The notes under the pieces: model-generated | What the model saw: only the letters and a program-made list of their open reading frames with translations | Database searches by the model: none | Told to the model about the DNA's origin: nothing | Shown: positions 774-15,959 of the stretch, one piece after another | Layout of the letters: each line of letters opens with the position of its first letter | Numbering within the stretch: position 1 is the first letter of the stretch | Made by a program: the position numbers and the translations under genes | Origin: a virus | Lineage: Duplodnaviria > Heunggongvirae > Uroviricota > Caudoviricetes | Virus record (IMG/VR): IMGVR_UViG_3300001199_000001 | Coordinates: 69,404 to 133,403 of that record | Length of the DNA: 64,000 nucleotides | Reading direction: 5' to 3' (one strand)

Positions 774-3700
774 GTGATCGGGGGCTATCCCGTTGGCAGC
801 GCTCCTGTTGGGGCGGCTTCTCGTGACCTTACCCAAACGGTAAGGCCGACGGCTACCTATGTCGGTAAAGACAGCGTAACTCCTAATGATTGGGCGAGCC
901 CCACCCCTGGTTTCCATACCGGCGGCGTGCGTACTGCTGCGCCGTCGCAGGCCACTGCTAATTTCCCCACCCCTATTCTTTACACGCCCGAAGGCTCAGA
1001 GGCGAAACTAACGCCGGGCCTTTTGGATACCATCCCGGCTAACACCGATTTCGTGGTGAAGGTCGCCGCAAAGCATTATGAAGCTAATGCGGGCATCGAC
1101 ATTATCGTTGATTGGGGCACGGACTCCGAGGTTTGGTTCGGCAACGACATCCAAACCCCTACGACGTTCATCAATGATACGAACTTCAGTACGTCGTCAC
1201 CACACAGCACGCTCATCACGTCCTCTATCGACGGTGACGGCTACCTAACCCTGGCCTATCGCTATAACGTCCCTAGCGAGGTTGTGTCTGTCCGTGTGAA
1301 CGGGACCAACTCTAATATAGATACCGTTACCCGGTCAGTCTATCTCGGCGGCGTTCAGGTCACTATAGGTTCCGACGACGAACCGTGGTTTAACGTCGGT
1401 GACTCGTACACGACCAACGCCTTCGGCTCGCCTACCGCCAGCGTTAGGTCCGAGCCGTCGTCGGCGACAACGACGAACGACTTCGGCTCGCCTACCGTTG
1501 TTGATACAACCCAGTCGGTCACTGCGTCGTCGGCGACAACGACCAATGACTACGGTACCTACGTAATTAGCAATGAGGCCGCGCAGCAGTTTGCGCCGTC
1601 GTCGGCGACAACGACGAACGACTTCGGTTCGCCTAACGTCCAAAACGCAACGATCCAGCCGTCGTCGGCGACAACGACCAATGACTACGGCTCGCCTACA
1701 GTCCAGTACCCCCCACAAACTATTAGCGTCACGTTAGACCAGCATACCGGTCTTGTCGGCTTCGGTGCTATCGGTCAGGCCTCTCTCGGTGACATCCGCT
1801 TCGCGCATGGTGTCACAGGTAATCAGTTTGGCTCACCTGCGCTCTCTCTCGGAACATCGTCTTTTGAAATCGCAGCTACATCTGCGACAACCACCAACGC
1901 GTTCGGTACGCCGAACGTTCAAAATGCCACCATCCAGGCATCTGGCGCGGCGAACACCAGCCTATTCGGTACCACTGTCCTTACGACCGGTGCGGTCACG
2001 GTCTCGCCCACAAGTGCGACGACAACTAATGCTTTCGGTACAGAGGTTCTGACGACCGGCGCCGTTAGCGTCACACCTGATTCGTCGACGACCACCAATA
2101 CCTTCGGCACTACTGTCCTGACGACCGGCGCCGTCAGCATCACACCTGATTCGGCGACGACCACCAACGCGTTCGGTACTACGGTCCTAACGACCGGAGC
2201 CGTGACCGTCACGCCGGACTCGGCGACGACTACAAACGCCTTCGGTGCGCCGACATTTTCTCCCGACGCGATTAGCGTAACGGCGGACTCGGCGACGACC
2301 ACCAATGCCTTCGGTACTGCCGTCCTAACGACCGGCGCGGTAGATGTTTCTCCGACATCGGCGACGACCACAAACGCGTTCGGCACAACGGTCGTCACGA
2401 CCGGTGCGGTCTCTATCTCCCCCACAAGCGTAGTCGATAAGGTCCCTTCCGCCCTTACGGACACGTTCGGTGATGGGCTGTCGAATTCTGGCGGCTACAC
2501 CACGGTAGCAATCGACACTATAGGTTCGTTCACTAAGACAACGCCTAATGATGGAAATACCAGACAAGTAGATACTATACAGTTCTCAACCGTGCGGACG
2601 GGAATGACTGGCACCGCAACGGTCCGCGCCGTAATATACACGAGCAATGGCAGCCATAATCCGGTAACACTCGTCGGTTATAGTGCTGATCAGTCGATAG
2701 CAGCTAGTTATGTAGGCGCGACTACCTTTACGTTCTCCACGCCGCCTGTACTCGCCCCCAACACGGAATATCACTTCGGTCTCCATATCTCTGGGGGACA
2801 GGTTGGTTTGCGTCTCCCGGCTTCAGTGACCGAGTATTACCGCGAGTTCGCGGACTCCTACGCAGACGGCCCGGCCTCAACTGCTTCTAGCCCAACTACT
2901 TCCGCGAATGCGTATGCCAGGATGCTCGTCAACACGACGGTTCTGTCAGATGCCTTTGGTTCACCAAATGTCCAGCCTGCGACAATCCAGGCATCAGGCT
3001 CGGCAAACACCAGTCTGTTCGGTACGCCCGAACTAGACCGCACTATCCCTCTCACAGGGATTGCGAGCGCCAACGCCTTCGGATCGCCTAACGTTCAAGG
3101 CGCAACGATCCAGGCATCAGGCGCGGCCAACACCAGTCTCTTCGGCACGCCGGAACTAGACCGCACGATCCCGCTGTCGGGCATTGCTAGCACCAACGCC
3201 TTCGGCTCACCGAATATCCAAGGCGCTACCATCCAGGCGACCGGTTACGCTAACGTTAATGCGTTCGGTACCCCGGATGCCCAGAACGCTACGATCTTCG
3301 CTGACGGTGCCGCCGACGCCGACCTGTTTGGTGCGCCAAGCTTCGCTACGGGCGAGGTCATCGTCACCGCCAGCGGCCTGTCCGATGGCGATAACTTCGG
3401 CTCACCTTCTATTACGACCGGTGAAGCCTCCGTTCCGGTCGACGGCTATGCGAATACCAACGCGTTCGGCTCACCATCCATCGCCGTCGGTGAGGTTATT
3501 GTCACCGCGAGCGGTCTGCTGGACGGCGATACCTTTGGCTCGCCTACGGTCACCACCGGAGCCGTCACGGTTACCATTGATGGCTATGAGAACGTTGTTG
3601 CTTTCGGCTCGCCGAACGTCACGACGGGCGAAGTCATCGTCACGGCGAGCGGTCTTCTGGATGGCGATACGTTCGGCTCCCCGACAATCAGCGTCGGAGC

Positions 3701-7183: not shown

Positions 7184-7259
7184 GTCGGTCTAGCTCATGG
7201 GGTAGAGCGGGAGCCTCCAAAACTCCGCGCGCAGGGTTCGAGTCCCTGGTCCGGCGCCA
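7184..7259 (+). tRNA. trnW: tRNA-Trp(CCA)
   Basis: Cloverleaf, loop CT-CCA-AA, TTCGAGT T-loop, CCA end. Confidence 0.92.
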
Positions 7260-7260
7260 T

Positions 7261-7334
7261 GCGAGTATAGCACAAAGGTAGTGCAGCAGCCTTCCAAGCT
7301 GAGGATGCCGGTTCGAGTCCGGCTACCCGCTCCA
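7261..7334 (+). tRNA. trnG: tRNA-Gly(TCC)
   Basis: Cloverleaf, loop CT-TCC-AA, U73, CCA end. Confidence 0.95.
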
Positions 7335-7414
7335 ATTCGAAAGGCGGATTATGTCCGTAGAAATGAACGTCTCCATCATGTGCGCACGGGTTGCGCCCGT
7401 CAATGGAGAAGAAA

Positions 7415-7648
7415 ATGGAACTGTATATTCCTTGTGAATGCCATAGTGTGGATCATGTGGTCCGCTTTACTAAAGACGAAGAATGGGGCGTGTACGTTAA
7501 CGTCCAACTCGATCCGTATCTTCCTTTTTGGCGTAAGGTATGGGTCGCTTTAAAATACGTCTTCGGACACTATGAGCAGTGTCATTGGGCTGAATGCGTT
7601 CTGACCGATGATACACGAGATAAGGTGGTGGAGTTTCTTCGCCGCTAG
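7415..7648 (+). CDS. Hypothetical protein (MELYIPCECH...)
   Basis: GGAG RBS before ATG 7415. Confidence 0.7.
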   Translation: MELYIPCECHSVDHVVRFTKDEEWGVYVNVQLDPYLPFWRKVWVALKYVFGHYEQCHWAECVLTDDTRDKVVEFLRR

Positions 7649-7659
7649 AAAGAATTACC

Positions 7660-7985
7660 GCCGCGTCGACCCGAAAGGGGAAAAACGCTAGAAGCGCGCT
7701 TCTAAGATCAGACCCCGCAAGGGATTCATTTCGGCTGCGGCTTGAATGGATGGGATGTAGTCCTACCTGCTGGCGGTAAAACATATGCGTCGGGTGTCCT
7801 CCTCTCGTACCGAGAAACCGTGCTGGCCGTACGGGAAGTGTAGGTTGATGCGGCCCCGTCCACGCCGACGACAGCACCGACAAGGCCATACGGTCGGTGG
7901 TCTGTCGTCGGTCACAGTGGATAGCTGGTTCGGGCTAGTGACAATGGTGTAGGGACCCACAAGGTGCCTATTGCATCACCCGAGT
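7660..7985 (+). ncRNA. Candidate structured ncRNA
   Basis: ORF-poor region with GNRA hairpins (7670-7679, 7714-7723), a 17-bp interrupted stem (7865-7911) and a long-range pair 7790-7796/7977-7983. Confidence 0.45.
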
Positions 7986-7990
7986 ATTTT

Positions 7991-8064
7991 GCGGATGTAG
8001 CTCAATGGTAGAGCACGGCGTTGCCAACGCACCGACGAGGGTTCGATTCCCTTCTTCCGCTCCA
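7991..8064 (+). tRNA. trnG: tRNA-Gly(GCC)
   Basis: Cloverleaf, loop TT-GCC-AA, CCA end. Confidence 0.93.
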
Positions 8065-8070
8065 ACCTTC

Positions 8071-8099
8071 TTGACAGTGGTCAACACATTGTGTATGTT
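8071..8099 (+). promoter_or_regulatory. sigma70-type promoter (near-leaderless mRNA)
   Basis: TTGACA-N17-TATGTT; ATG 8 nt downstream with no SD. Confidence 0.65.
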
Positions 8100-8107
8100 G
8101 ACCGCCG

Positions 8108-8578
8108 ATGGAAATCTTGGATTGCTATTCCCGTAGCCCCGATCCGGTTGGTAAAGGGTTATCGAATTTGATCGTACGGCATTTCGTTTTTGACGATATC
8201 GCCTGCGTTTCGATGGAAGGATGGCTGCAAAGCCTCAAATTCGAGGACCCGGAATTTCAGCGCGAGGTCGCGCAGCTTTCCGGGTATCTCGCCTTCAAGA
8301 CCGGACAGACGGGCAACGCCTGGAAACTCCGGCAGACTTTATTCTGGAAGGGTGTGGAATATCCACGGGCTTCCTTAGACTATCAGGAACTGCTCACCCG
8401 CGCGTACGACGCGCAGTATGATCAGTCTCCGGATTTAAAAGACTGTCTATGGTTGTCGATAGGTCAAGCCCTACGGCACACCATGGGAAAACACGATACC
8501 CGAGACACGGTCTTGACCGAGTCCGAGTATATCAGGCAACTGGATCGCCTCCGCTGGCGGCGATACCATAACGAGTGA
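8108..8578 (+). CDS. NADAR/YbiA-like protein (T4 gp30.3 type)
   Basis: LSN...F.FD...C.SMEG.LQSLKF...W...QTL.WKG.EY.R.S..YQ.LL.RAY motif pattern. Confidence 0.8.
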   Translation: MEILDCYSRSPDPVGKGLSNLIVRHFVFDDIACVSMEGWLQSLKFEDPEFQREVAQLSGYLAFKTGQTGNAWKLRQTLFWKGVEYPRASLDYQELLTRAYDAQYDQSPDLKDCLWLSIGQALRHTMGKHDTRDTVLTESEYIRQLDRLRWRRYHNE

Positions 8579-8636
8579 AGCGCATGTGCGAGATCGTCAT
8601 CTTCCGTTGAGGTAATTACCTCAACGGAGAAGTCAA

Positions 8637-9239
8637 ATGTCTACCCGCGACTGGAGCCGTCTTGGCCCCGTGTCCGTGCGGTCGTATACTACTGAACGCC
8701 GCTCGTTTGGGCGGTCCTTCACGTATGAATACGTCCCTATCATCAAACATTATATCAGCTTTGCTGAGGCGGTCATTGCCGTGGGCTACACCCACGTCAT
8801 GGCCCTTCAGTATGACCGCCCGAAGAATATGTATCTTCTTGCGCCGGGTGACGACTATCAGTTCCTTGATGAACTGGGCTTTGTCATTCCGGTATGGCGC
8901 GTCAAGCAAGAAGCCCTGAGCCTTTCCGAAAAGGAATGGAGCAAGGCTCCTCGTTGGATGCGCCCACGGTGGTCGCGTCGTCGCGACTTCGTTTTCCGTC
9001 GTGGGCCTGTTGAAGGGATTCGATGCTACCGGGGTGGGGGCGGGTGGCAAAGGGCCATTCGTACTCACGCTGAAATCCGAGAGAACGAGGCTCTGTATTT
9101 TGACGCTGACGCAAAGGAAGTTGGTATCGAACCGCGCGGTCATCGGCGTAATCTCCGCACTAGCTGGGATGACCCCGGCAGGAGCGACCACGATGTACGT
9201 TCTTGGAAGAAGCACCGCAAAACCCAGTGGAGAGCGTGA
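8637..9239 (+). CDS. Conserved basic phage hypothetical protein
   Basis: 200 aa; Arg/Trp-rich C-terminus (RGPV.G...SWDD...RSWKKHRKTQW). Confidence 0.75.
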   Translation: MSTRDWSRLGPVSVRSYTTERRSFGRSFTYEYVPIIKHYISFAEAVIAVGYTHVMALQYDRPKNMYLLAPGDDYQFLDELGFVIPVWRVKQEALSLSEKEWSKAPRWMRPRWSRRRDFVFRRGPVEGIRCYRGGGGWQRAIRTHAEIRENEALYFDADAKEVGIEPRGHRRNLRTSWDDPGRSDHDVRSWKKHRKTQWRA

Positions 9240-9478
9240 TGGGCAGTTGGAATTATCGATTCGTGCGTATCCCCAACGAGGGCTGTGAAGGTGGCTATGA
9301 ATACGGCCTTCGCGAGGTCTACTACGACGAAGAAGGCACGCCTACGATGATGAGCGCCGAAGACACTACATTAGGGTCTGAGTGCCTAGACGACCTGACT
9401 GACATTCTGGAAAGAGTGTTGGCCAGCCACAAAAAGCTCGGTGTGTTTATTCCACCGGAAACATGGATGAAGGACTAA
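9239..9478 (+). CDS. Hypothetical protein (MGSWNYRF...LREVYYD)
   Basis: ATG overlaps the upstream TGA; WNYR...EVYYD pattern typical of small phage proteins. Confidence 0.75.
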   Translation: MGSWNYRFVRIPNEGCEGGYEYGLREVYYDEEGTPTMMSAEDTTLGSECLDDLTDILERVLASHKKLGVFIPPETWMKD

Positions 9479-9482
9479 GGAT

Positions 9483-10145
9483 ATGACGTTCGTTGAAATC
9501 AGAGCCGCTGAGGGCGGCGAGGACTCCAAGCTTCTAATCAGCGTTCTGGCGGCGGCGTATCGTCGTCGCGCGAGTAACTACGGCTGAAAGGTTGAAGAGA
9601 CGAGGCGCCACGACGGGCTTCTCGTGCTCAAGATCGCCGCTCCTATCGACAAATGGCGACAGGAAGCTGGCGGACATCGCTTTCAACGGGTACCCCCGAC
9701 GGAACGGCGCGGACGAGTCCACACGAGCACCGTGACTGTCGCCGTCGTCGATCACGCTGCGTTCGAGAGCGTCTTTAACGAAGACGACGTAAAGATTGAA
9801 TGGTTTTCTGGCACGGGTAAGGGTGGGCAGAACAGGAATAAGGTCCAAGCGTCTTGCCGCGCACTACACGTCCCGACTGGCATTATCGCCAAGGCTGAAA
9901 CCCGTTCACGCACCTCCAGTCAAAATCTTGCCGTCGCTGAACTAAAGCGGCGTGTCGACGAAGCCGCTCAAGGTTTGGATGCGTCTCGAAAAGCCACCGA
10001 GCGTAAGCAGCAAGTCGGATCAGGCATGCGGGGCGATAAAATCCGTACGTACCGGTTGCAGGACGACACTGTCGTGGATCATCGGACCGAGAAGCGCGCA
10101 ACTTGGAAGCAGATCGAGCGTGGTGAGTTTGCACTTTTACACTAA
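9483..10145 (+). CDS. Class I peptide chain release factor homologue (RF1-like, no domain 1) with in-frame TGA at 9585-9587
   Basis: VEIRAAEGGEDS...YG*KVE, GGHRFQRVPPTERRGRVHTS, GTGKGGQNRNK, RGDKIRTY; all in one frame from ATG 9483. Confidence 0.88.
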
Positions 10146-10183
10146 GTTGACAACTAACATGTAGTGTGTCATCATCCACGTCG

Positions 10184-10477
10184 ATGAAAGAAAATGAAAT
10201 CGACGTGGAACAAGGGTTCTACGAGAGATGTGCCGAACTGCTTGGCGTTCCGTACACCTACCGCTCTTATCCTTATAAGGGCCATACTTCTCGGTGGAAC
10301 AACCGAGACCCCGGCAACGGGAGATTTCCCGGTCGGGGGCTCATTCGCCTTTATGGCGATACCGTTCATATGATGCTGCGGCATCCGATCTGTATCACCA
10401 GAAGGTTTGCATCCTCAGCGGAAGCCCTAAACTTTTTAGAAGAAAAGTGTGTCAACGTTGTTGACATACCGATTTAG
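10184..10477 (+). CDS. Hypothetical protein
   Basis: ORF MKENEIDVEQ...; SRWNNR.PGNGRFPG.G motif. Confidence 0.7.
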   Translation: MKENEIDVEQGFYERCAELLGVPYTYRSYPYKGHTSRWNNRDPGNGRFPGRGLIRLYGDTVHMMLRHPICITRRFASSAEALNFLEEKCVNVVDIPI

Positions 10478-10489
10478 CGGTGCTATAAG
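10461..10489 (+). promoter_or_regulatory. Promoter of module A (Glu/Asp tRNAs)
   Basis: TTGACA-N17-TATAAG. Confidence 0.75.
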
Positions 10490-10498
10490 CTCCACACC

Positions 10499-10564
10499 AT
10501 GACCTACATGATTATCTTCCGAGAACGCGAGGCCCTGTCGGGCCGAGATACGTTCGCCGCCTAG
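10499..10564 (+). CDS. Putative leader peptide A, MTYMIIFREREALSGRDTFAA
   Basis: Near-leaderless mini-ORF after the promoter; contains GAA, GAG and GAT codons, upstream of tRNA-Glu and tRNA-Asp. Confidence 0.5.
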   Translation: MTYMIIFREREALSGRDTFAA

Positions 10565-10592
10565 TTGGCGGCAGGCGTAACCGGCCTTCTGC

Positions 10593-10667
10593 GGCCCGGT
10601 CGTCTAATAGTGAGGATACCTGACTTTCAATCAGGAGACAGGGGGGCAGTACCCCTTCGGGCTTCCA
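10593..10667 (+). tRNA. trnE: tRNA-Glu(TTC), atypical T-loop GGCAGTA
   Basis: Loop CT-TTC-AA, CCA end. Confidence 0.88.
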
Positions 10668-10669
10668 TC

Positions 10670-10743
10670 GCTCAATTCGTCTATCAGTAGGATACTAGAC
10701 TGTCGATCTAGAGAGGCGGGGGCAGCACCCGCATTGAGCGCCA
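10670..10743 (+). tRNA. trnD: tRNA-Asp(GTC), atypical T-loop GGCAGCA
   Basis: Loop CT-GTC-GA, G73, CCA end. Confidence 0.9.
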
Positions 10744-11596
10744 TGGGCCTTAGAAAGTACAACTGGCAAGAAATCCAAGCGGTTTATGACCGTGGTCTCA
10801 CGATCCGTCAGATAATGACGCGGTTCGGTATGTCCGCCGACACGATCTCAAAAGCACGCAAGAGAGGGGAATTCAAGGGACGGACAAGGACTAGAAAAAT
10901 CCCTTATCAAAGAGACTGTCATCGCTGCGGTGATACTTTCAATTTAACCGGGCACGATCAAAAATATTGCTCGCAGTCTTGCGCTGCAAGTTTTAATCAA
11001 CTGGGCACGCGCCGCTCTGATGCAACGAGACTAAAACTTAAAGAATCGGCGATCAGACTCAATGCCGCATCTAATTTCACGGATGCGTGGGGTAAGCCAA
11101 GAAGGGCTCCTCGGAAGTTGCTAGAGCAAGTCTGTCTAGATTGCGGTTCGTGGTTTAGTACGATCCCGAGCGCAAGTCGGATGTATTGTTCGATGGAGTG
11201 TACTAATAAGCACCGTCACCACCCAAACTCTCTCGCAAGACGAGCGTTACTTACTGCGGGGTACCACTCGATTCTGGTGCTGAGCGTCTAATTGCAAAGG
11301 AGTTATCCCTACTTGGGATAAGATGGAAGAAAAACAAAGTTCATATTACCAAGAGTTTCTGTTTTACGGATTTTAACGGAAAATCAAGAATGTATTATCC
11401 GGACTTCTACCTACCGGATGCTGGTGTTTGGGTAGAGGTCAAGGGTAAAAAATACATTCGTCCGGATGATAAACTTCGAATAGCGTCTGTCGACGTTCCT
11501 TGTTACTATTTGATATCGAATGAATTCAGCCAGACGCTACATCCGTTTCTGGAAGAAATTACTTCTACCATTCAATCGCGGCATCCGAAATCTTGA
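10743..11596 (+). pseudogene. Frameshifted PD-(D/E)xK (homing-type) endonuclease with HTH and Cys-rich motifs
   Basis: Frame 1 runs to ...HHPNS. The alternative frame continues RKTSVTYCGVPLDSGAE...MYYPDFYLP...VEVKG. One base appears to be missing in CTCTCTC near 11228-11234. Confidence 0.7.
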
Positions 11597-11599
11597 CCT

Positions 11600-11615
11600 G
11601 AGTCACTTAAAGTGA
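11600..11615 (+). promoter_or_regulatory. Recurrent palindromic motif GAGTCACTTWAAGTGA
   Basis: Copies at 11600, 15003, 15513, 22576, 24696, 26205, 28711, 36402, 44842, 48419 and 62025, mostly upstream of structural or lysis genes. Confidence 0.75.
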
Positions 11616-11646
11616 TATGCAAATAGGTCAGTCATAGGGGATTGTC

Positions 11647-11850
11647 ATGAAAATCGTTTACGGTAAAGCTAAGCCTGCTACCAGCCGCAGCGTCAACGCC
11701 GCGAAGATGTCTTACGGCACTGTCGCCGAGCGTTTCCCTGGCCGGAGCGGCGGTGGATACGGAGCCCTCGGCTTCGCTACCTCGGCGAATGGAACTGGTT
11801 TTGCGAACACTAGCCTGTTCGGTACAGCCGCTGTCGCCAACGCTGCCTAA
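11647..11850 (+). CDS. 67-aa protein carrying one GFANTSLFGT filament-type repeat
   Basis: GGGG RBS, upstream GAGTCAC motif, repeat shared with 774-6824 and 53501-59512. Confidence 0.65.
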   Translation: MKIVYGKAKPATSRSVNAAKMSYGTVAERFPGRSGGGYGALGFATSANGTGFANTSLFGTAAVANAA

Positions 11851-11869
11851 AATAATTCGATTAAAATAG

Positions 11870-11898
11870 TTGACACAGCGAACATCCGCTGTTAATGT
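11870..11898 (+). promoter_or_regulatory. Promoter of module B (Pro/Met/Thr/Lys tRNAs)
   Basis: TTGACA-N17-TAATGT. Confidence 0.8.
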
Positions 11899-11905
11899 AG
11901 CCACC

Positions 11906-12001
11906 ATGATCACCAAGACAACCACGCCAATGACCATGAAGCCCACCAAGCCGGTGGGGCTGTCTCTGCGTGCGTTGAAGGAACAAGAACCCGGCGGGTA
12001 G
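11906..12001 (+). CDS. Leader peptide B, MITKTTTPMTMKPTKPVGLSLRALKEQEPGG
   Basis: Codons 3-16 are all Thr/Lys/Pro/Met; followed by a terminator. Confidence 0.85.
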   Translation: MITKTTTPMTMKPTKPVGLSLRALKEQEPGG

Positions 12002-12030
12002 TAAGTTCCAAGATCAACAAGTTTCGCGAG

Positions 12031-12066
12031 ACGGCCCCGGCATAAAAACCGGGGCCGTTTCTTTTT
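12031..12066 (+). terminator. Intrinsic terminator (attenuator B)
   Basis: ACGGCCCCGG-loop-CCGGGGCCGT followed by TTCTTTTT. Confidence 0.9.
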
Positions 12067-12079
12067 GTCCATCAATCAT

Positions 12080-12157
12080 CTGTGTGTAGCTCAGTTTGGC
12101 CAGAGTACTCCGTTCGGATCGGAGGGGCCGCAGGTTCAAATCCTGCCACACAGACCA
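12080..12157 (+). tRNA. trnP: tRNA-Pro(CGG)
   Basis: Loop TT-CGG-AT, C1-G72, A73, CCA. Confidence 0.95.
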
Positions 12158-12170
12158 ATTCGAGGCGACG

Positions 12171-12419
12171 ATGAGTAGATGCTCCGTAGACCCTGACCAA
12201 CTGATTAAAGCTCGCGAAGATGCGCGCGCTGCGGGAGACCGCGTCTACGTCGAAGCGCAGAAGCTAGCATCTGAGTTAGCGGAGCAAGTGGGTCTGGCCT
12301 TTCGCGGTGTCGACCTCAGTGCCTATGATCACCTCAAGATCGAGGTTGATCGAGATTTTTTGGATAGTCTTCTGCGGGGTGAACACCTCAACGACGACTT
12401 CCTGAGGGGATGTAAATAA
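12171..12419 (+). CDS. Hypothetical protein
   Basis: GAGG RBS, ATG 12171; fills the gap between two tRNAs. Confidence 0.6.
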   Translation: MSRCSVDPDQLIKAREDARAAGDRVYVEAQKLASELAEQVGLAFRGVDLSAYDHLKIEVDRDFLDSLLRGEHLNDDFLRGCK

Positions 12420-12496
<77 letters not shown>

Positions 12497-12513
12497 ACTA
12501 GGAGACGGCAACC

Positions 12514-12819
12514 GTGAGACTTTATCTCGACGATATCCGCACACCGCCTCCGGGCGAGTGGGTTATCTGTCGAGATGTTGAACAGGCGCAGGCGATCTGC
12601 GCCGCTCACGGTTGCCCAGCCTTTATCTCCTTCGACCACGACTTGGGCGAGGACGTAGCCACCGGTTACGATTTCGCCCACTGGCTGGTCGACAACGACC
12701 TAGACACAGGCGGAGCCTTCATCCCGGAAGGCTTCACCTACAATGTACATTCGGCCAACCCGGTCGGCGCCGCGAACATCACGGGCCTGCTGGACGGTTA
12801 TCTGGAGTTTCGGCGATGA
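12514..12819 (+). CDS. Cyclic-phosphate-processing receiver-like domain protein
   Basis: LYLDD.R.PP...ISFDHDLG...TGYD...VHSANPVG motif set. Confidence 0.8.
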   Translation: MRLYLDDIRTPPPGEWVICRDVEQAQAICAAHGCPAFISFDHDLGEDVATGYDFAHWLVDNDLDTGGAFIPEGFTYNVHSANPVGAANITGLLDGYLEFRR

Positions 12820-12929
12820 GCGCGGAAGACCGCATAATAAATGCGACCCTCGCGATCATCGCCTCGTTAGAGGCACAGCTTAACAATCAGCGCGCGGCGC
12901 TGATCAGGCTTGTAGAGGAGAAAAATAGA

Positions 12930-13007
12930 CAGGGTGTAGCTCAGCATGGCGAGAGCGTTACGTCGGGAACGTAAAGGTCGCTGGTTCAAGTCCAGTCACC
13001 CTGACCA
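12930..13007 (+). tRNA. trnP: tRNA-Pro(GGG)
   Basis: Loop TC-GGG-AA, CCA. Confidence 0.93.
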
Positions 13008-13016
13008 AAGTTTTAT

Positions 13017-13092
13017 TGTGGTATAGCTCAGTTGGTAGAGCGTCGGGCTCATATTCCGGATGTCGCTGGTTCGATCCCAGCTACCACAACCA
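13017..13092 (+). tRNA. trnM: tRNA-Met(CAT); could be Ile2 if lysidine-modified
   Basis: Loop CT-CAT-AT, CCA. Confidence 0.85.
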
Positions 13093-13096
13093 ATTT

Positions 13097-13168
13097 GCCG
13101 ATGCCGTGTGGTACGGGCCTGTCCTTGGTATGGACGGTGGCAGGGTTCGATTCCCTGTTTCGGCTCCA
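13097..13168 (+). tRNA. trnT: tRNA-Thr(GGT), compact D-arm
   Basis: Loop TT-GGT-AT, canonical T-arm, CCA. Confidence 0.8.
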
Positions 13169-13174
13169 GTTTAT

Positions 13175-13248
13175 GCCGCTATAGCTCAGTGGTAGAGCAG
13201 CGCCTTCGTAACGCGAAGATCGGAGTTCGATTCCCCGTAGCGGCACCA
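13175..13248 (+). tRNA. trnT: tRNA-Thr(CGT)
   Basis: thrW-like sequence, loop TT-CGT-AA, CCA. Confidence 0.9.
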
Positions 13249-13306
13249 TTATAATTGTAAGCTTCGTGATGCCTTATCACCGGATAATGTAATACGAAGT
13301 TTACAC

Positions 13307-13382
13307 GCCGGATTAGCTCAGTTGGTAGAGCGGCAGTTTTGTAAACTGATGGTCAGGGGTTCGAATCCTCTATCCGGCACCA
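13307..13382 (+). tRNA. trnT: tRNA-Thr(TGT)
   Basis: Loop TT-TGT-AA, CCA. Confidence 0.95.
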
Positions 13383-13386
13383 GTTT

Positions 13387-13473
13387 GGATCAGTCACCTC
13401 AGCGGCGAGAGGCACGGGCTCTTAATCCGTCAGCGTAAGCTCATCGTGGGTTCGAGTCCCACCTGATCCTCCA
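13387..13473 (+). tRNA. trnK: tRNA with CTT (Lys) anticodon and a long variable arm
   Basis: Loop CT-CTT-AA, V-arm AGC-GTAA-GCT, U73, CCA; 87 nt. Confidence 0.82.
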
Positions 13474-13475
13474 AA

Positions 13476-13503
13476 TTCCCGCCGACAGTTTAGTCGGCGG
13501 GAA
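13476..13503. terminator. Hairpin closing tRNA module B
   Basis: TTCCCGCCGAC/GTCGGCGGGAA; the U-tract is on the minus strand only. Confidence 0.6.
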
Positions 13504-13528
13504 AAATCGAATAATCTGTATTTTCTTG

Positions 13529-13557
13529 TTGACATACCCTTAAACACTTGATATAAA
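13529..13557 (+). promoter_or_regulatory. Promoter of module C (Leu tRNAs)
   Basis: TTGACA-N17-TATAAA. Confidence 0.85.
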
Positions 13558-13564
13558 CCTCCCC

Positions 13565-13651
13565 ATGTTCACGAACGCCCACACCTTATTGCTACTTAGC
13601 GACGCCTTCGCCGCGTCCTTGGTTGCGCGTGCGTTTGGCGTTAAACGGTAG
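13565..13651 (+). CDS. Leader peptide C, MFTNAHTLLLLSDAFAASLVARAFGVKR
   Basis: Four consecutive, different Leu codons TTA TTG CTA CTT upstream of five tRNA-Leu genes. Confidence 0.82.
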   Translation: MFTNAHTLLLLSDAFAASLVARAFGVKR

Positions 13652-13717
13652 TCCAGACTGCGCTTAGGCGTCTGAGACTATAAGTCCCAACATCTCTGTG
13701 CAGTCCCTTGCTTTCAA

Positions 13718-13797
13718 GGGTCCCGAGCTAACTCAGGGTGGCTTGGGCGCGGCCTTTAACCGCAGAGCAAGAAGTTCGACTCTTCCGGGACCCTCCA
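13718..13797 (+). tRNA. Degenerate tRNA with TTT (Lys) anticodon
   Basis: GGGTCCC/GGGACCC acceptor, loop CC-TTT-AA (C33), irregular D-arm, U73, CCA. Confidence 0.55.
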
Positions 13798-13816
13798 ATC
13801 TCAAGACCAAATCCAT

Positions 13817-13895
13817 CGTCGCCTAGCCCAACCATGGCAGAGGCAATACGTTGAGAGCGTATCCAGTACGAGTTCGAATCTCGTGGCGACGACCA
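13817..13895 (+). tRNA. trnL: tRNA-Leu(GAG), short variable loop
   Basis: Loop TT-GAG-AG, 5-nt V-loop, A73, CCA. Confidence 0.85.
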
Positions 13896-13896
13896 T

Positions 13897-13981
13897 GCGG
13901 ATGTGGCGGAATTGGTAGACGCCCTGGTTTTAGGTACCAGTATCGCAAGGTGTGGAGGTTCGAGTCCTCTCATCCGCACCA
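13897..13981 (+). tRNA. trnL: tRNA-Leu(TAG)
   Basis: Class II cloverleaf, loop TT-TAG-GT, CCA. Confidence 0.95.
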
Positions 13982-13990
13982 TTCATTCAC

Positions 13991-14065
13991 GGCCTCGGAA
14001 GTCAAAGAATCGAGACAGCCCGGTAAGGGAACTGAAGTCGGTGTAAGTCCGGCCCAAGGCCACCA
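13991..14065 (+). ncRNA. tRNA-like RNA (8-bp acceptor plus 5-bp T-stem, CCA end)
   Basis: GGCCTCGG/CCAAGGCC, T-arm GTCGG-TGTAAGT-CCGGC, irregular anticodon arm, ACCA end. Confidence 0.55.
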
Positions 14066-14073
14066 TGTTTTAT

Positions 14074-14151
14074 CGCTGGGTAGCCCAACTTGGTAGAGGC
14101 GACGCGCTCAGAATGCGTACAGTGAGAGTTCGAATCTCTCTCCAGCGACCA
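14074..14151 (+). tRNA. trnL: tRNA-Leu(CAG), short variable loop
   Basis: Loop CT-CAG-AA, 5-nt V-loop, A73, CCA. Confidence 0.85.
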
Positions 14152-14168
14152 ATCTTAAGGGGACTAAA

Positions 14169-14375
14169 ATGACTCTGAAGACCCACGTCACCGGAATGGT
14201 CACGTTCCAGTATTATCGCGACGGTAACCTCTGGTACAAGACGGATTCAGGTTTCAGCTTCCCCGTCCCGGTAGACGACACAGGATCAGCGACGTTCTCG
14301 GCGTTGGATAAGGCGCTGCTTTTCATGCGGTACATCCGTAAGCATATGGATGTCATCGCAGCGAAGGTAAATTGA
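14169..14375 (+). CDS. Conserved small phage protein
   Basis: F.YYR.G.LWY.T..GF.FPVP..D.G.A.F...DK...FMRYIRK pattern; GGGG RBS. Confidence 0.75.
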   Translation: MTLKTHVTGMVTFQYYRDGNLWYKTDSGFSFPVPVDDTGSATFSALDKALLFMRYIRKHMDVIAAKVN

Positions 14376-14379
14376 TCAC

Positions 14380-14462
14380 GCGGGTATGGCGGAATTGGTA
14401 GACGCGCTGGCTTCAAGTACCAGTGTTAATTCGTGCCGGTTCGAGTCCGGCTACCCGCACCA
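14380..14462 (+). tRNA. trnL: tRNA-Leu(CAA)
   Basis: Class II, loop TT-CAA-GT, CCA. Confidence 0.93.
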
Positions 14463-14468
14463 ACCTAT

Positions 14469-14545
14469 CCCCTGGTAGCCCAACTGGCAGAGGCAACGGA
14501 TTTAAGCTCCGTCAAGTCTGAGTTCGAATCTCAGGTAGGGGACCA
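14469..14545 (+). tRNA. trnL: tRNA-Leu(TAA), short variable loop
   Basis: Loop TT-TAA-GC, 5-nt V-loop, A73, CCA. Confidence 0.85.
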
Positions 14546-14554
14546 ATCATAAAT

Positions 14555-14588
14555 AAAGCCCCGGTGGACCCAACTCCGCCGGGGCTTT
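14555..14588. terminator. Bidirectional terminator
   Basis: AAAGCCCCGG/CCGGGGCTTT with A/T-rich flanks. Confidence 0.8.
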
Positions 14589-14594
14589 AAAATT

Positions 14595-14910
14595 GGAGAG
14601 GGGCGGAGGACTTTCGCCCGCCGCCCCTCATATGCCGTGTGTTGCTCCAAAATTCCACCTAGCAAATCTGAGATACATCTTCCCGTGAAGGTTAATGCAT
14701 CCGGCCTCCTACGCAGCCCAGTACGGGACCTTTCGGTTTCCGCCCGGCGTCTGTTTCGGCCTTACCGCCATCTCCCTATTTCTAAGGAGCGGCAGGTCCG
14801 GTAGAGCCATGTTCCTCGCCCGAAGCGTTAGGACCGGAGGGCTCCAAACCCGTTTGGTTCAGACAAATAGACCTTACCCAGCGACCCTGTTCGGGTCAAC
14901 GCTCTTTTGT
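14595..14910 (-). ncRNA. Candidate structured ncRNA on the minus strand
   Basis: GAAA tetraloop stems (14595-14628, 14725-14745) and a C(UUCG)G loop (14817-14827) read correctly only on the minus strand. Confidence 0.45.
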
Positions 14911-15070
14911 AGTTATCCACAGTTTCGAGAAACTGTGGACGGTTTCCAAAGCGGTCTTGACAGCGTGCGTGAGATTGACTAGGCGCGCGCATTTCTTGAC
15001 ACGAGTCACTTTAAGTGAGAGTAAAGAGGGCGGCTACCCGTTACGCGCCATTCCAACCCCCGAAGGCCCC

Positions 15071-15511
15071 ATGTATCTTTCTCCGCACTTCAGCTTGGCT
15101 GAGCTAACCGCCTCGAACACCGCAAAACGTCGCGGTTTCGACAACACCCCGTCGCCTTATGTGCTGGAGAACCTTCGCGTCACGGCCGAAGCTATGGAAG
15201 AAATCCGCGCCATTCTCGGAAAGGCGATCATTGTCACGTCCGGGTTCCGCAGCGCCATCGTCAATCAGCTTGTTGGCGGCTCTCAATCATCCGCCCACGT
15301 TCAGGGCTTTGCCGTCGACTTCATCAGTCCGGGATTTGGCACGCCCTTCGAGGTCGCCCGCGAGATCGCCAAGCACAAGGATGAACTGAAGTACGATCAG
15401 TTGATCCACGAGTATCGCGACTGGACGCATATCAGCTTCGATCCCCGCGCTCGGAAGATCGATAACTCGATCTTTACACCGGGCCGTTATCTGCTCGGTA
15501 TCTTGCCGTAA
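15071..15511 (+). CDS. Peptidase M15 family cell-wall hydrolase (endolysin-like)
   Basis: LSPHFSLAEL...VTSGFRS...S.H..G.AVD...DQLIHEY..WTHIS. Confidence 0.9.
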   Translation: MYLSPHFSLAELTASNTAKRRGFDNTPSPYVLENLRVTAEAMEEIRAILGKAIIVTSGFRSAIVNQLVGGSQSSAHVQGFAVDFISPGFGTPFEVAREIAKHKDELKYDQLIHEYRDWTHISFDPRARKIDNSIFTPGRYLLGILP

Positions 15512-15541
15512 CGAGTCACTTTATCCTAAGGACACCTGCAT

Positions 15542-15814
15542 ATGTTGCCTGCAATAAGACTCGGCGCGACGACCGTCGAAACCGTCACTGACGAGTCGGC
15601 GTCGTTCACCCAGTCGCGTCCGTGGACCCAAGTGATGGTCCGCGCCAACGTCGCCGTCTGCCTGAAGACTGGTTCGACAGCGACGGAAGACGACTTCTAT
15701 CTAAAGGAAGATACCTATCTCGCCGTTGAACTGACTGAGGGCGAGACGCTACACTATATCCTTGCTACCGGGGAATCCGACGGCGAGATCAGAATCACCA
15801 CAATCGCCTATTAA
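15542..15814 (+). CDS. Small beta-rich, probably virion protein
   Basis: GAGTCAC motif upstream, AAGG RBS. Confidence 0.6.
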   Translation: MLPAIRLGATTVETVTDESASFTQSRPWTQVMVRANVAVCLKTGSTATEDDFYLKEDTYLAVELTEGETLHYILATGESDGEIRITTIAY

Positions 15815-15818
15815 ATTG

Positions 15819-15847
15819 TTGACACAGCGGAAACGCTGTGTTAAAAC
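15819..15847 (+). promoter_or_regulatory. Promoter of module D (His/Ala/Ser tRNAs)
   Basis: TTGACA-N17-TAAAAC. Confidence 0.75.
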
Positions 15848-15854
15848 CCCCGAC

Positions 15855-15959
15855 ATGATCAAGACCGCAACCCATTCGAGCGCCCATAGCTCCGCCGCAT
15901 CAGCGGCGTCGAGTACGGCTGCTCGTGCGGTCTCCGCCTCCGCCAGCAGCCTCTCCTAA
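15855..15959 (+). CDS. Leader peptide D, MIKTATHSSAHSSAASAASSTAARAVSASASSLS
   Basis: 12 Ser, 11 Ala and 2 His in 34 codons, upstream of His, 3 Ala and 4 Ser tRNAs. Confidence 0.88.
   Translation: MIKTATHSSAHSSAASAASSTAARAVSASASSLS

Follow-up and report, generated by a model that had tools for sequence, protein, structure and literature searches.

A phage release-factor gene of RF1 type with an in-frame UGA at a conserved tryptophan codon, a probable case of gating by UGA read-through

A class-I release-factor gene with a stop codon at the position of a conserved tryptophan raises the question of whether the gene is broken, misread or gated by that stop. Such a gene was located at 9483-10145 (plus strand) of the window, the 64,000-nt stretch of DNA analysed here, which corresponds to bases 69404-133403 of a single phage contig of 278,859 bp (56% G+C) originating from a groundwater metagenome. 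The gene runs from ATG 9483 to TAA 10143-10145 and its 220 codons are open except for one TGA at 9585-9587 (plus strand). This codon, number 35, is preceded by GGC (Gly) and followed by A (AGT AAC TAC GGC TGA AAG GTT GAA, translated as SNYG*KVEE). The TGA aligns with the Trp of the solved RF1 structures, and the aligned codon was TGG in 71 genes of a control set of 78 full-length cellular RF1 genes from bacterial genomes. At its three other Trp positions the gene has TGG. The description given by the first-pass annotation, a UGA in the UGA-A context at the conserved Trp codon with EIRAAEGG upstream, was borne out by the sequence and by the RF1 alignment.

The same annotation had placed the true start of the gene at 9483. 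A Shine-Dalgarno-like AAGGA (9470-9474, plus strand) lies 8 nt before ATG 9483, and the upstream ORF (9203-9478), a member of an unrelated phage family of unknown function, ends with a stop at 9476-9478. The start at 9483 was adopted because the upstream ORF is unrelated and AAGGA lies 8 nt ahead; the homologues likewise begin 3-8 codons ahead of the EIRAAEGG motif. Translational coupling of the release-factor gene to the upstream ORF is possible.

According to the alignment to RF1, the first 34 codons (9483-9584, plus strand) encode EIRAAEGGED and helix alpha-5, including, where that helix begins, the counterparts of RF1 Gly116 and Glu119. In RF1-ribosome structures these two residues contact U, the first base of the stop codon. 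The remaining 185 codons and the TAA (9588-10145, plus strand) contain the decoding loop QRVPPTERRGRVHTS, GGQ and domain 4, with PPT (within RVPPTE) at 9693-9701 and GGQ (within GKGGQ) at 9822-9830, residues 114-116. When Trp was put at the TGA, the product matched PCRF (PF03462, 60 bits) and RF-1 (PF00472, 65 bits), both above the cut-offs. The NCBIfam scores were 168 bits for prfA, 92 for prfB and 47 (46.8) for prfH, and this order was repeated in six relatives. The prfA match begins at position 107 of the 347 positions of the model, and its 168 bits are far below the cut-off of 400 because domain 1 is absent. As judged from these matches, the predicted protein belongs to the RF1 type but lacks domain 1 and is not a prfA equivalog.

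Residues 3-202 aligned to residues 108-317 of Thermus thermophilus RF1 (4v4r) with an E-value of about 1e-32. The decoding loop reads FQRVPPTERRGRVHTS, and PxT is present together with the neighbouring RF1-type residues (QRVPxTE...GR(I/V)HTS). The middle residue of PxT is Pro, which was not seen in any of the 78 cellular RF1s. The RF1-like PPT specificity loop that had been noticed earlier was confirmed by its position at 9693-9701 and by prfA being the best NCBIfam match. Under the tripeptide rule, Pro-x-Thr reportedly stands for UAA and UAG, and the factor is predicted to read these two stops.

A read error was also considered in the first-pass annotation. The Logan assembly of the probable source run gave the same letters at a depth of 27, although this assembly is of the same sample as the window and is not independent evidence. 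The sequencing runs holding the locus were one DNA run, the probable source, and no RNA run was listed. At the site itself a prfB-type cassette is absent: the sequence is TAC GGC TGA AAG, the downstream ORF continues in the same frame, and there is neither CUU nor an SD-like element. No Rfam match was obtained in the window at 9300-10300.

The phage uses the standard code, and TGA is its normal and commonest terminator. The table-11 frames of at least 150 codons between stops sum to 94% of the 278,859-bp genome, and they are closed by TGA in 146, TAA in 100 and TAG in 69 cases (146 of 315 by TGA), in agreement with the earlier statement that TGA is an ordinary stop in this genome. The 43 tRNA genes of the whole contig (39 lie within the window, at 7184-20658) include neither one with a UCA anticodon nor tRNA-Sec. 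With relaxed thresholds, ARAGORN output 331 predictions, most of them spurious, of which four were 'tca' calls and none was a credible UGA reader; the 'tca' call inside the tRNA island was rejected due to its poor cloverleaf and location within an ORF. Genome-wide recoding of TGA to Trp (code 4) was ruled out, TGA being a common terminator and a UCA tRNA being absent. A genome-wide hunt for TGA-joined gene pairs gave 23 matches which resembled ordinary same-frame neighbours; the codon-usage score employed was crude, failed to recover even the release-factor gene and was uninformative. The release-factor gene is the sole place found in the phage that requires recoding, as far as a genome-wide search with this crude score goes.

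The gene sits inside the tRNA island, and a link of the gate to tRNA leader modules is proposed from this position. The phage tRNA-Trp(CCA) gene (7184-7259, plus strand) is situated 2.2 kb upstream; its product would be the near-cognate tRNA expected to read UGA and may have a role in the gate. A Hirsh-type D-arm (U11-A24) was not found in the phage tRNA-Trp, where the corresponding pair of the D stem is C11-G24, and a C31-A39 mismatch is present at the bottom of the anticodon stem. The release-factor gene is flanked in the island by a T4 gp30.3-like ORF (PF08010, 136 bits) at 8108-8578 and by an HNH or NinG-like ORF with an N-terminal HTH at 10734-11291. A promoter-like TTGACA-17-TATGTT was observed at 8071-8099.

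A profile search of IMG/VR resulted in 176 relatives, the best 80 of which were read, and seven more were taken from the first single-protein IMG/VR scan and from INPHARED phage records. In total 88 genes were reconstructed, 73 of them distinct, and all the counts given for the family refer to this set (the best 80 of 176 plus the seven). Most relatives come from phage contigs that span 100-500 kb and have 26-68% G+C. One or two in-frame stops per gene, within roughly codons 32-54 of about 225, were detected in 55 of the 73 distinct relatives. A +1 frameshift at CTT-TGA or CTT-TAG is needed in a further 14, and 11 of these 14 have an SD-like stretch ahead, for example cGGAGG-N3, as in the architecture of the prfB site; this full arrangement is present in L006, L069, L076, L079, L082, L087, L091, L092, L096 and others. 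Only four of the 73 have no gate. Stops further downstream were absent from the family except for one decayed-looking copy with TAA at codon 182.

The gates of the family are confined to about 25 codons and to three hot spots. The frameshift cassettes of other clades occupy the same codon as the TGA of the window, with CTT at position 35, and the remaining two hot spots (around codons 46 and 52) each occur in read-through and frameshift versions. As a gate codon TGA ranks far above TAG, and TAA is never used. The later Trp codons stay TGG even in relatives with genomes of 29% G+C. No in-frame stop was found in the 78 cellular RF1 controls; since these have neither such stops nor Pro in the middle of PxT, gate and PPT loop are both associated with the short form.

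In a maximum-likelihood tree (quick search), the gene of the window fell into a clade of 12 distinct genes with an SH-aLRT of 95 and 44-49% identity. The path lengths from the window gene to its nearest relatives were 1.7-1.9 changes per site. TGA occupies the Trp-equivalent codon in all 12 distinct members and TGG in none. In 11 of the 12 a Gly codon (GGY) precedes this TGA; after the TGA comes A or C, and the protein is conserved on either side. The comparison with homologues, which the first-pass annotation had suggested as a check on whether the TGA is kept, was therefore strongly positive, with the stop present throughout the clade and nearly all relatives gated. Retention over 1.7-1.9 changes per site without a single TGG, together with the conservation of both protein flanks, indicates that the stop was selected as a stop. 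From this pattern of sequence conservation it is concluded with high confidence that the stop is a selected, built-in expression gate and that the gene is not a broken one.

The nucleotide following the gate was also non-random. Family-wide, the fourth base after the in-frame TGAs was A in 36 and C in 35 of 71 cases and no other base was found, while the first codon positions of these genes contain 35% A, 19% C, 34% G and 13% T, corresponding to an A+C fraction of 0.53. Of the four possible fourth bases, A and C are reportedly the weakest two for UGA termination in E. coli. The occurrence of A or C in 71 of 71 cases against the background of 0.53 points to selection of the UGA termination context for leakiness.

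An RNA hairpin was predicted by folding at 9597-9629 (plus strand), starting 9 nt after the UGA, a spacing close to the distance at which structures stimulate recoding. The 90-nt fold had an energy of -30.6 kcal/mol and a z-score of -1.9, and the best 42-nt window, with -17.1 kcal/mol, was in the top 5% of the positions in its own gene. In the clade, structures after the UGA were commoner than by chance (mean percentile 0.25), with values near the median in four of the 12 members. RNAalifold on the codon alignment of the 12 clade members detected no consensus structure and no covariation. The hairpin is possibly a read-through stimulator, for which the predicted fold gives a hint.

Several loci of the relatives had further features. 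One of the closest relatives of the window protein (49% identity) was found at 2501-3158 of locus L175, a 25-kb contig of a Hydrogenophilales MAG (NCIF01000008.1), which probably represents a phage that was binned into a bacterial MAG. To be translated in full, its gene requires a +1 shift at the second hot spot, around codon 46, where GGGGG-CAC-CTT-TGA-C all but reproduces the E. coli prfB cassette. At L030 (845-1587) the gene has one UGA at codon 45, and a tRNA-Trp(CCA) gene starts 13 nt past its end. ARAGORN reported a tRNA with a four-base anticodon (ccta) at 984-1060 of L024, beside a release-factor gene with two UGAs. In the low-GC two-UGA clade, a CUA-anticodon (amber-reading) tRNA was called by ARAGORN about 1-2.5 kb downstream of the release-factor gene (L034, L038, L042, L056, L059, L067, L070, L072-L074, L078), and the table-11 coding density was low (56-70%) in several of these loci. 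The two-UGA, CUA-tRNA phages, represented here by short loci of 5.6 kb, may be amber-recoded, which would fit oddly with a UAG-reading factor. Five genes on contigs of Gottesmanbacteria and Roizmanbacteria MAGs (L179, L181, L188, L246, L253) are RF1-like, with PTT, PST or PIT loops, no in-frame stop and just 5-16 open codons before EIR; some candidate-phyla bacteria may possess ungated RF1s that lack domain 1.

Taken jointly, the product of the gene is probably a functional class-I release factor, RF1-like but lacking domain 1, whose synthesis is gated by programmed UGA read-through and tied to weak UGA termination. The particular mechanism and the signal sensed are proposed with moderate confidence. 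Ribosomes initiating at 9483 would meet UGA-A at codon 35, where the host RF2 would compete with a near-cognate tRNA, most likely of the phage-encoded tRNA-Trp(CCA) type. Termination there would release a useless 34-residue peptide, and read-through would insert Trp, the ancestral residue, and give the 220-residue factor. The level of the factor would be low and would rise with a shortage or overload of RF2 or with plentiful tRNA-Trp. In the related phages with the prfB-type +1 frameshift cassette, the same job would be done at the same place. The occurrence of read-through, the identity of the inserted residue and the RF2 level as the signal together form what appears to be the most economical reading of the sequences, in line with the first-pass suggestion of a read-through possibly sensing RF2 shortage. 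Because the first 34 residues carry stop-reading elements, a protein initiated beyond the UGA would lack what a decoding factor needs.

In bacteria, UGA is typically read through at a basal rate of no more than a few per cent, and the yield of the factor may therefore be very low. The relatives with two UGAs would produce far less if unaided, which hints at a helper factor that has not been found. The regulatory logic is also not self-evident, as a predicted UAA/UAG reader is gated by a codon read by RF2, and a few relatives are gated by TAG though their decoding loop is identical. Two rationales can be offered. The extra UAA/UAG capacity might free RF2 from UAA for the many UGA stops of the phage, as we infer; or UGA, being the leakiest stop, might keep a potentially harmful factor scarce. 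The latter would fit the ranking of TGA far above TAG and the absence of TAA among the gates. In a bolder reading, which is tentative and carries well below even confidence, the short PPT factors would form a separate, RF3-independent termination system and the gates would be feedback sensors of termination capacity. This could work by either of two routes: the factors would read UGA besides UAG, giving true autoregulation, or RF2 shortage would switch on factors that assume the work at UAA and UAG, leaving RF2 available for the numerous phage UGA stops.

The main rival to the proposed gating through weak UGA termination is true autoregulation, modelled on prfB and on the Mimivirus eRF1-like gene. 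The PPT factors would then read UGA themselves (UGA and UAG, or all three stops), and the stop would be a negative-feedback sensor. Such an arrangement would agree with a gate that is mostly TGA and sometimes TAG while the decoding loop remains unchanged, as in the sisters L048 (TGA) and L058 (TAG) and in L096, which has TAG among TGA relatives. The prfB-type cassette at the same site in relatives, the PPT variant of PxT unseen in the 78 cellular RF1s, and the two-UGA clade with its CUA-anticodon tRNA beside the gene, odd for a UAG-reading factor, point in the same direction. However, all the alignable RF1-type decoding residues are kept (Pro and Thr of PxT, Gln before the loop, GRVHTS), and TAA, which is readable by both specificities, is never a gate, which fits the leakiest stop better than the factor's own codon. 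Autoregulation in this strict form was judged unlikely. It is very unlikely that UGA is efficiently read by a suppressor or modified tRNA during infection, so that the gate would reflect a local or timed code change and act as a timer instead of an RF2 sensor. Two serial UGAs, as in many relatives, would be hard to pass by basal read-through, the gene is located in the tRNA island, and stop-recoded phages with 'code-change modules' exist (bioRxiv 10.1101/2021.08.26.457843). Against this, the genome has no UCA tRNA and the relaxed search gave false positives only, one of them inside an ORF; TGA closes 146 of the 315 long frames; and the TGAs of the family are limited to about 25 codons, with the later Trp remaining TGG even at 29% G+C.

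The 173-codon ORF starting at GTG 9624 could suggest a split or restarted gene, with separate synthesis of the 34-residue peptide and of a C-terminal protein such as the 173 aa from GTG 9624. But there is no SD ahead of 9624, no start codon is conserved there in the clade, and the codons between the stop and GTG 9624 are conserved as protein. The C-terminal piece would be without helix alpha-5, and the relatives with two stops or a +1 shift would not be accounted for, which makes such a split highly improbable. A pseudogene, a sequencing error or a selenocysteine codon can be conceived, as a single TGG-to-TGA change would suffice and a hairpin follows the UGA, and yet this group of explanations is close to refuted already. 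Twelve distinct and distant relatives share the stop and conserve the protein sequence of both halves, the re-assembly showed the same base (in the same sample), and selenocysteine is opposed by the lack of tRNA-Sec on the contig, of an Rfam match and of conservation of the hairpin.

The favoured gating by UGA read-through can be compared with the bacterial prfB (RF2) gene, where an SD-like element, a 3-nt spacer and CUU UGA C direct an autoregulatory +1 programmed frameshift. Both are class-I release-factor genes with an early stop and a yield set by recognition of that stop, and relatives of the window gene carry the prfB cassette (cGGAGG-N3-CTT-TGA-N) at the codon of the window's TGA, one having GGGGG-CAC-CTT-TGA-C at the second hot spot. 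In contrast to prfB, the gate of the window is in frame and needs read-through without a shift, the stop comes after EIRAAEGG of domain 2 instead of lying in domain 1, UGA is not among the codons predicted for this RF1-type protein, and some relatives are gated by TAG. In a 2025 survey, no programmed frameshift was evident for prfA and TAG was not found in the prfB motif (PMC12421855). The closest viral analogue is the eRF1-like gene of Mimivirus and Megavirus, likewise a virus-encoded class-I release factor with internal stops, which are passed by frameshift and read-through; tight buffering of the factor's level was the reading given (Jeudy et al. 2012, PMC3521657). The Mimivirus factor is of eukaryotic/archaeal type, belongs to amoebal giant viruses and presumably reads all three stops, allowing direct autoregulation, whereas the factor of the window is of bacterial RF1 type, is found in a phage and needs one read-through.

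Phage RF1/RF2 genes beside tRNA genes have been termed 'code-change modules' and proposed to reshape termination (Borges et al., bioRxiv 10.1101/2021.08.26.457843). Their release factors are described as standard-code genes in phages that recode a stop genome-wide; the phage studied here shares a release factor near tRNA genes but is not recoded. RF1/RF2 are listed with no mention of internal stops both in the huge-phage survey (PMC7162821) and in the recoded-phage survey (bioRxiv 10.1101/2021.08.26.457843), in which the release-factor genes were called with table 11 or described as standard-code. PrfH (RF-H) and ArfB are short GGQ-bearing relatives of release factors, and PrfH is also without domain 1. 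Unlike PrfH and ArfB, the window protein has retained a complete RF1 decoding domain with PxT, and its match to PrfH is weak and limited to the GGQ domain. Identity with PrfH was rejected, as the 46.8 bits are below the TIGR03072 cut-off of 166.65. No RtcB gene was found among the scanned neighbours. Literature searches returned no description of gated RF1-type phage release-factor genes.

For bacterial RF2, recoding within the release-factor gene is textbook knowledge; in Mimivirus it is a curiosity. A phage-borne gene of RF1 type gated by UGA read-through would be a variant on such recoding-gated release-factor genes. The finding also explains a systematic annotation error, since table-11 callers give fragments of 140-175 aa or miss these genes, and it raises the question of what use a factor without domain 1 is to a phage that brings about 40 tRNAs. 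The family would serve as a natural collection of bacterial read-through and frameshift signals. In this RF1-type factor of large phages, UGA read-through, UAG read-through and a prfB-like +1 shift appear to be interchangeable at three hot spots, which suggests strong and repeated selection tying the synthesis of the factor to termination efficiency.
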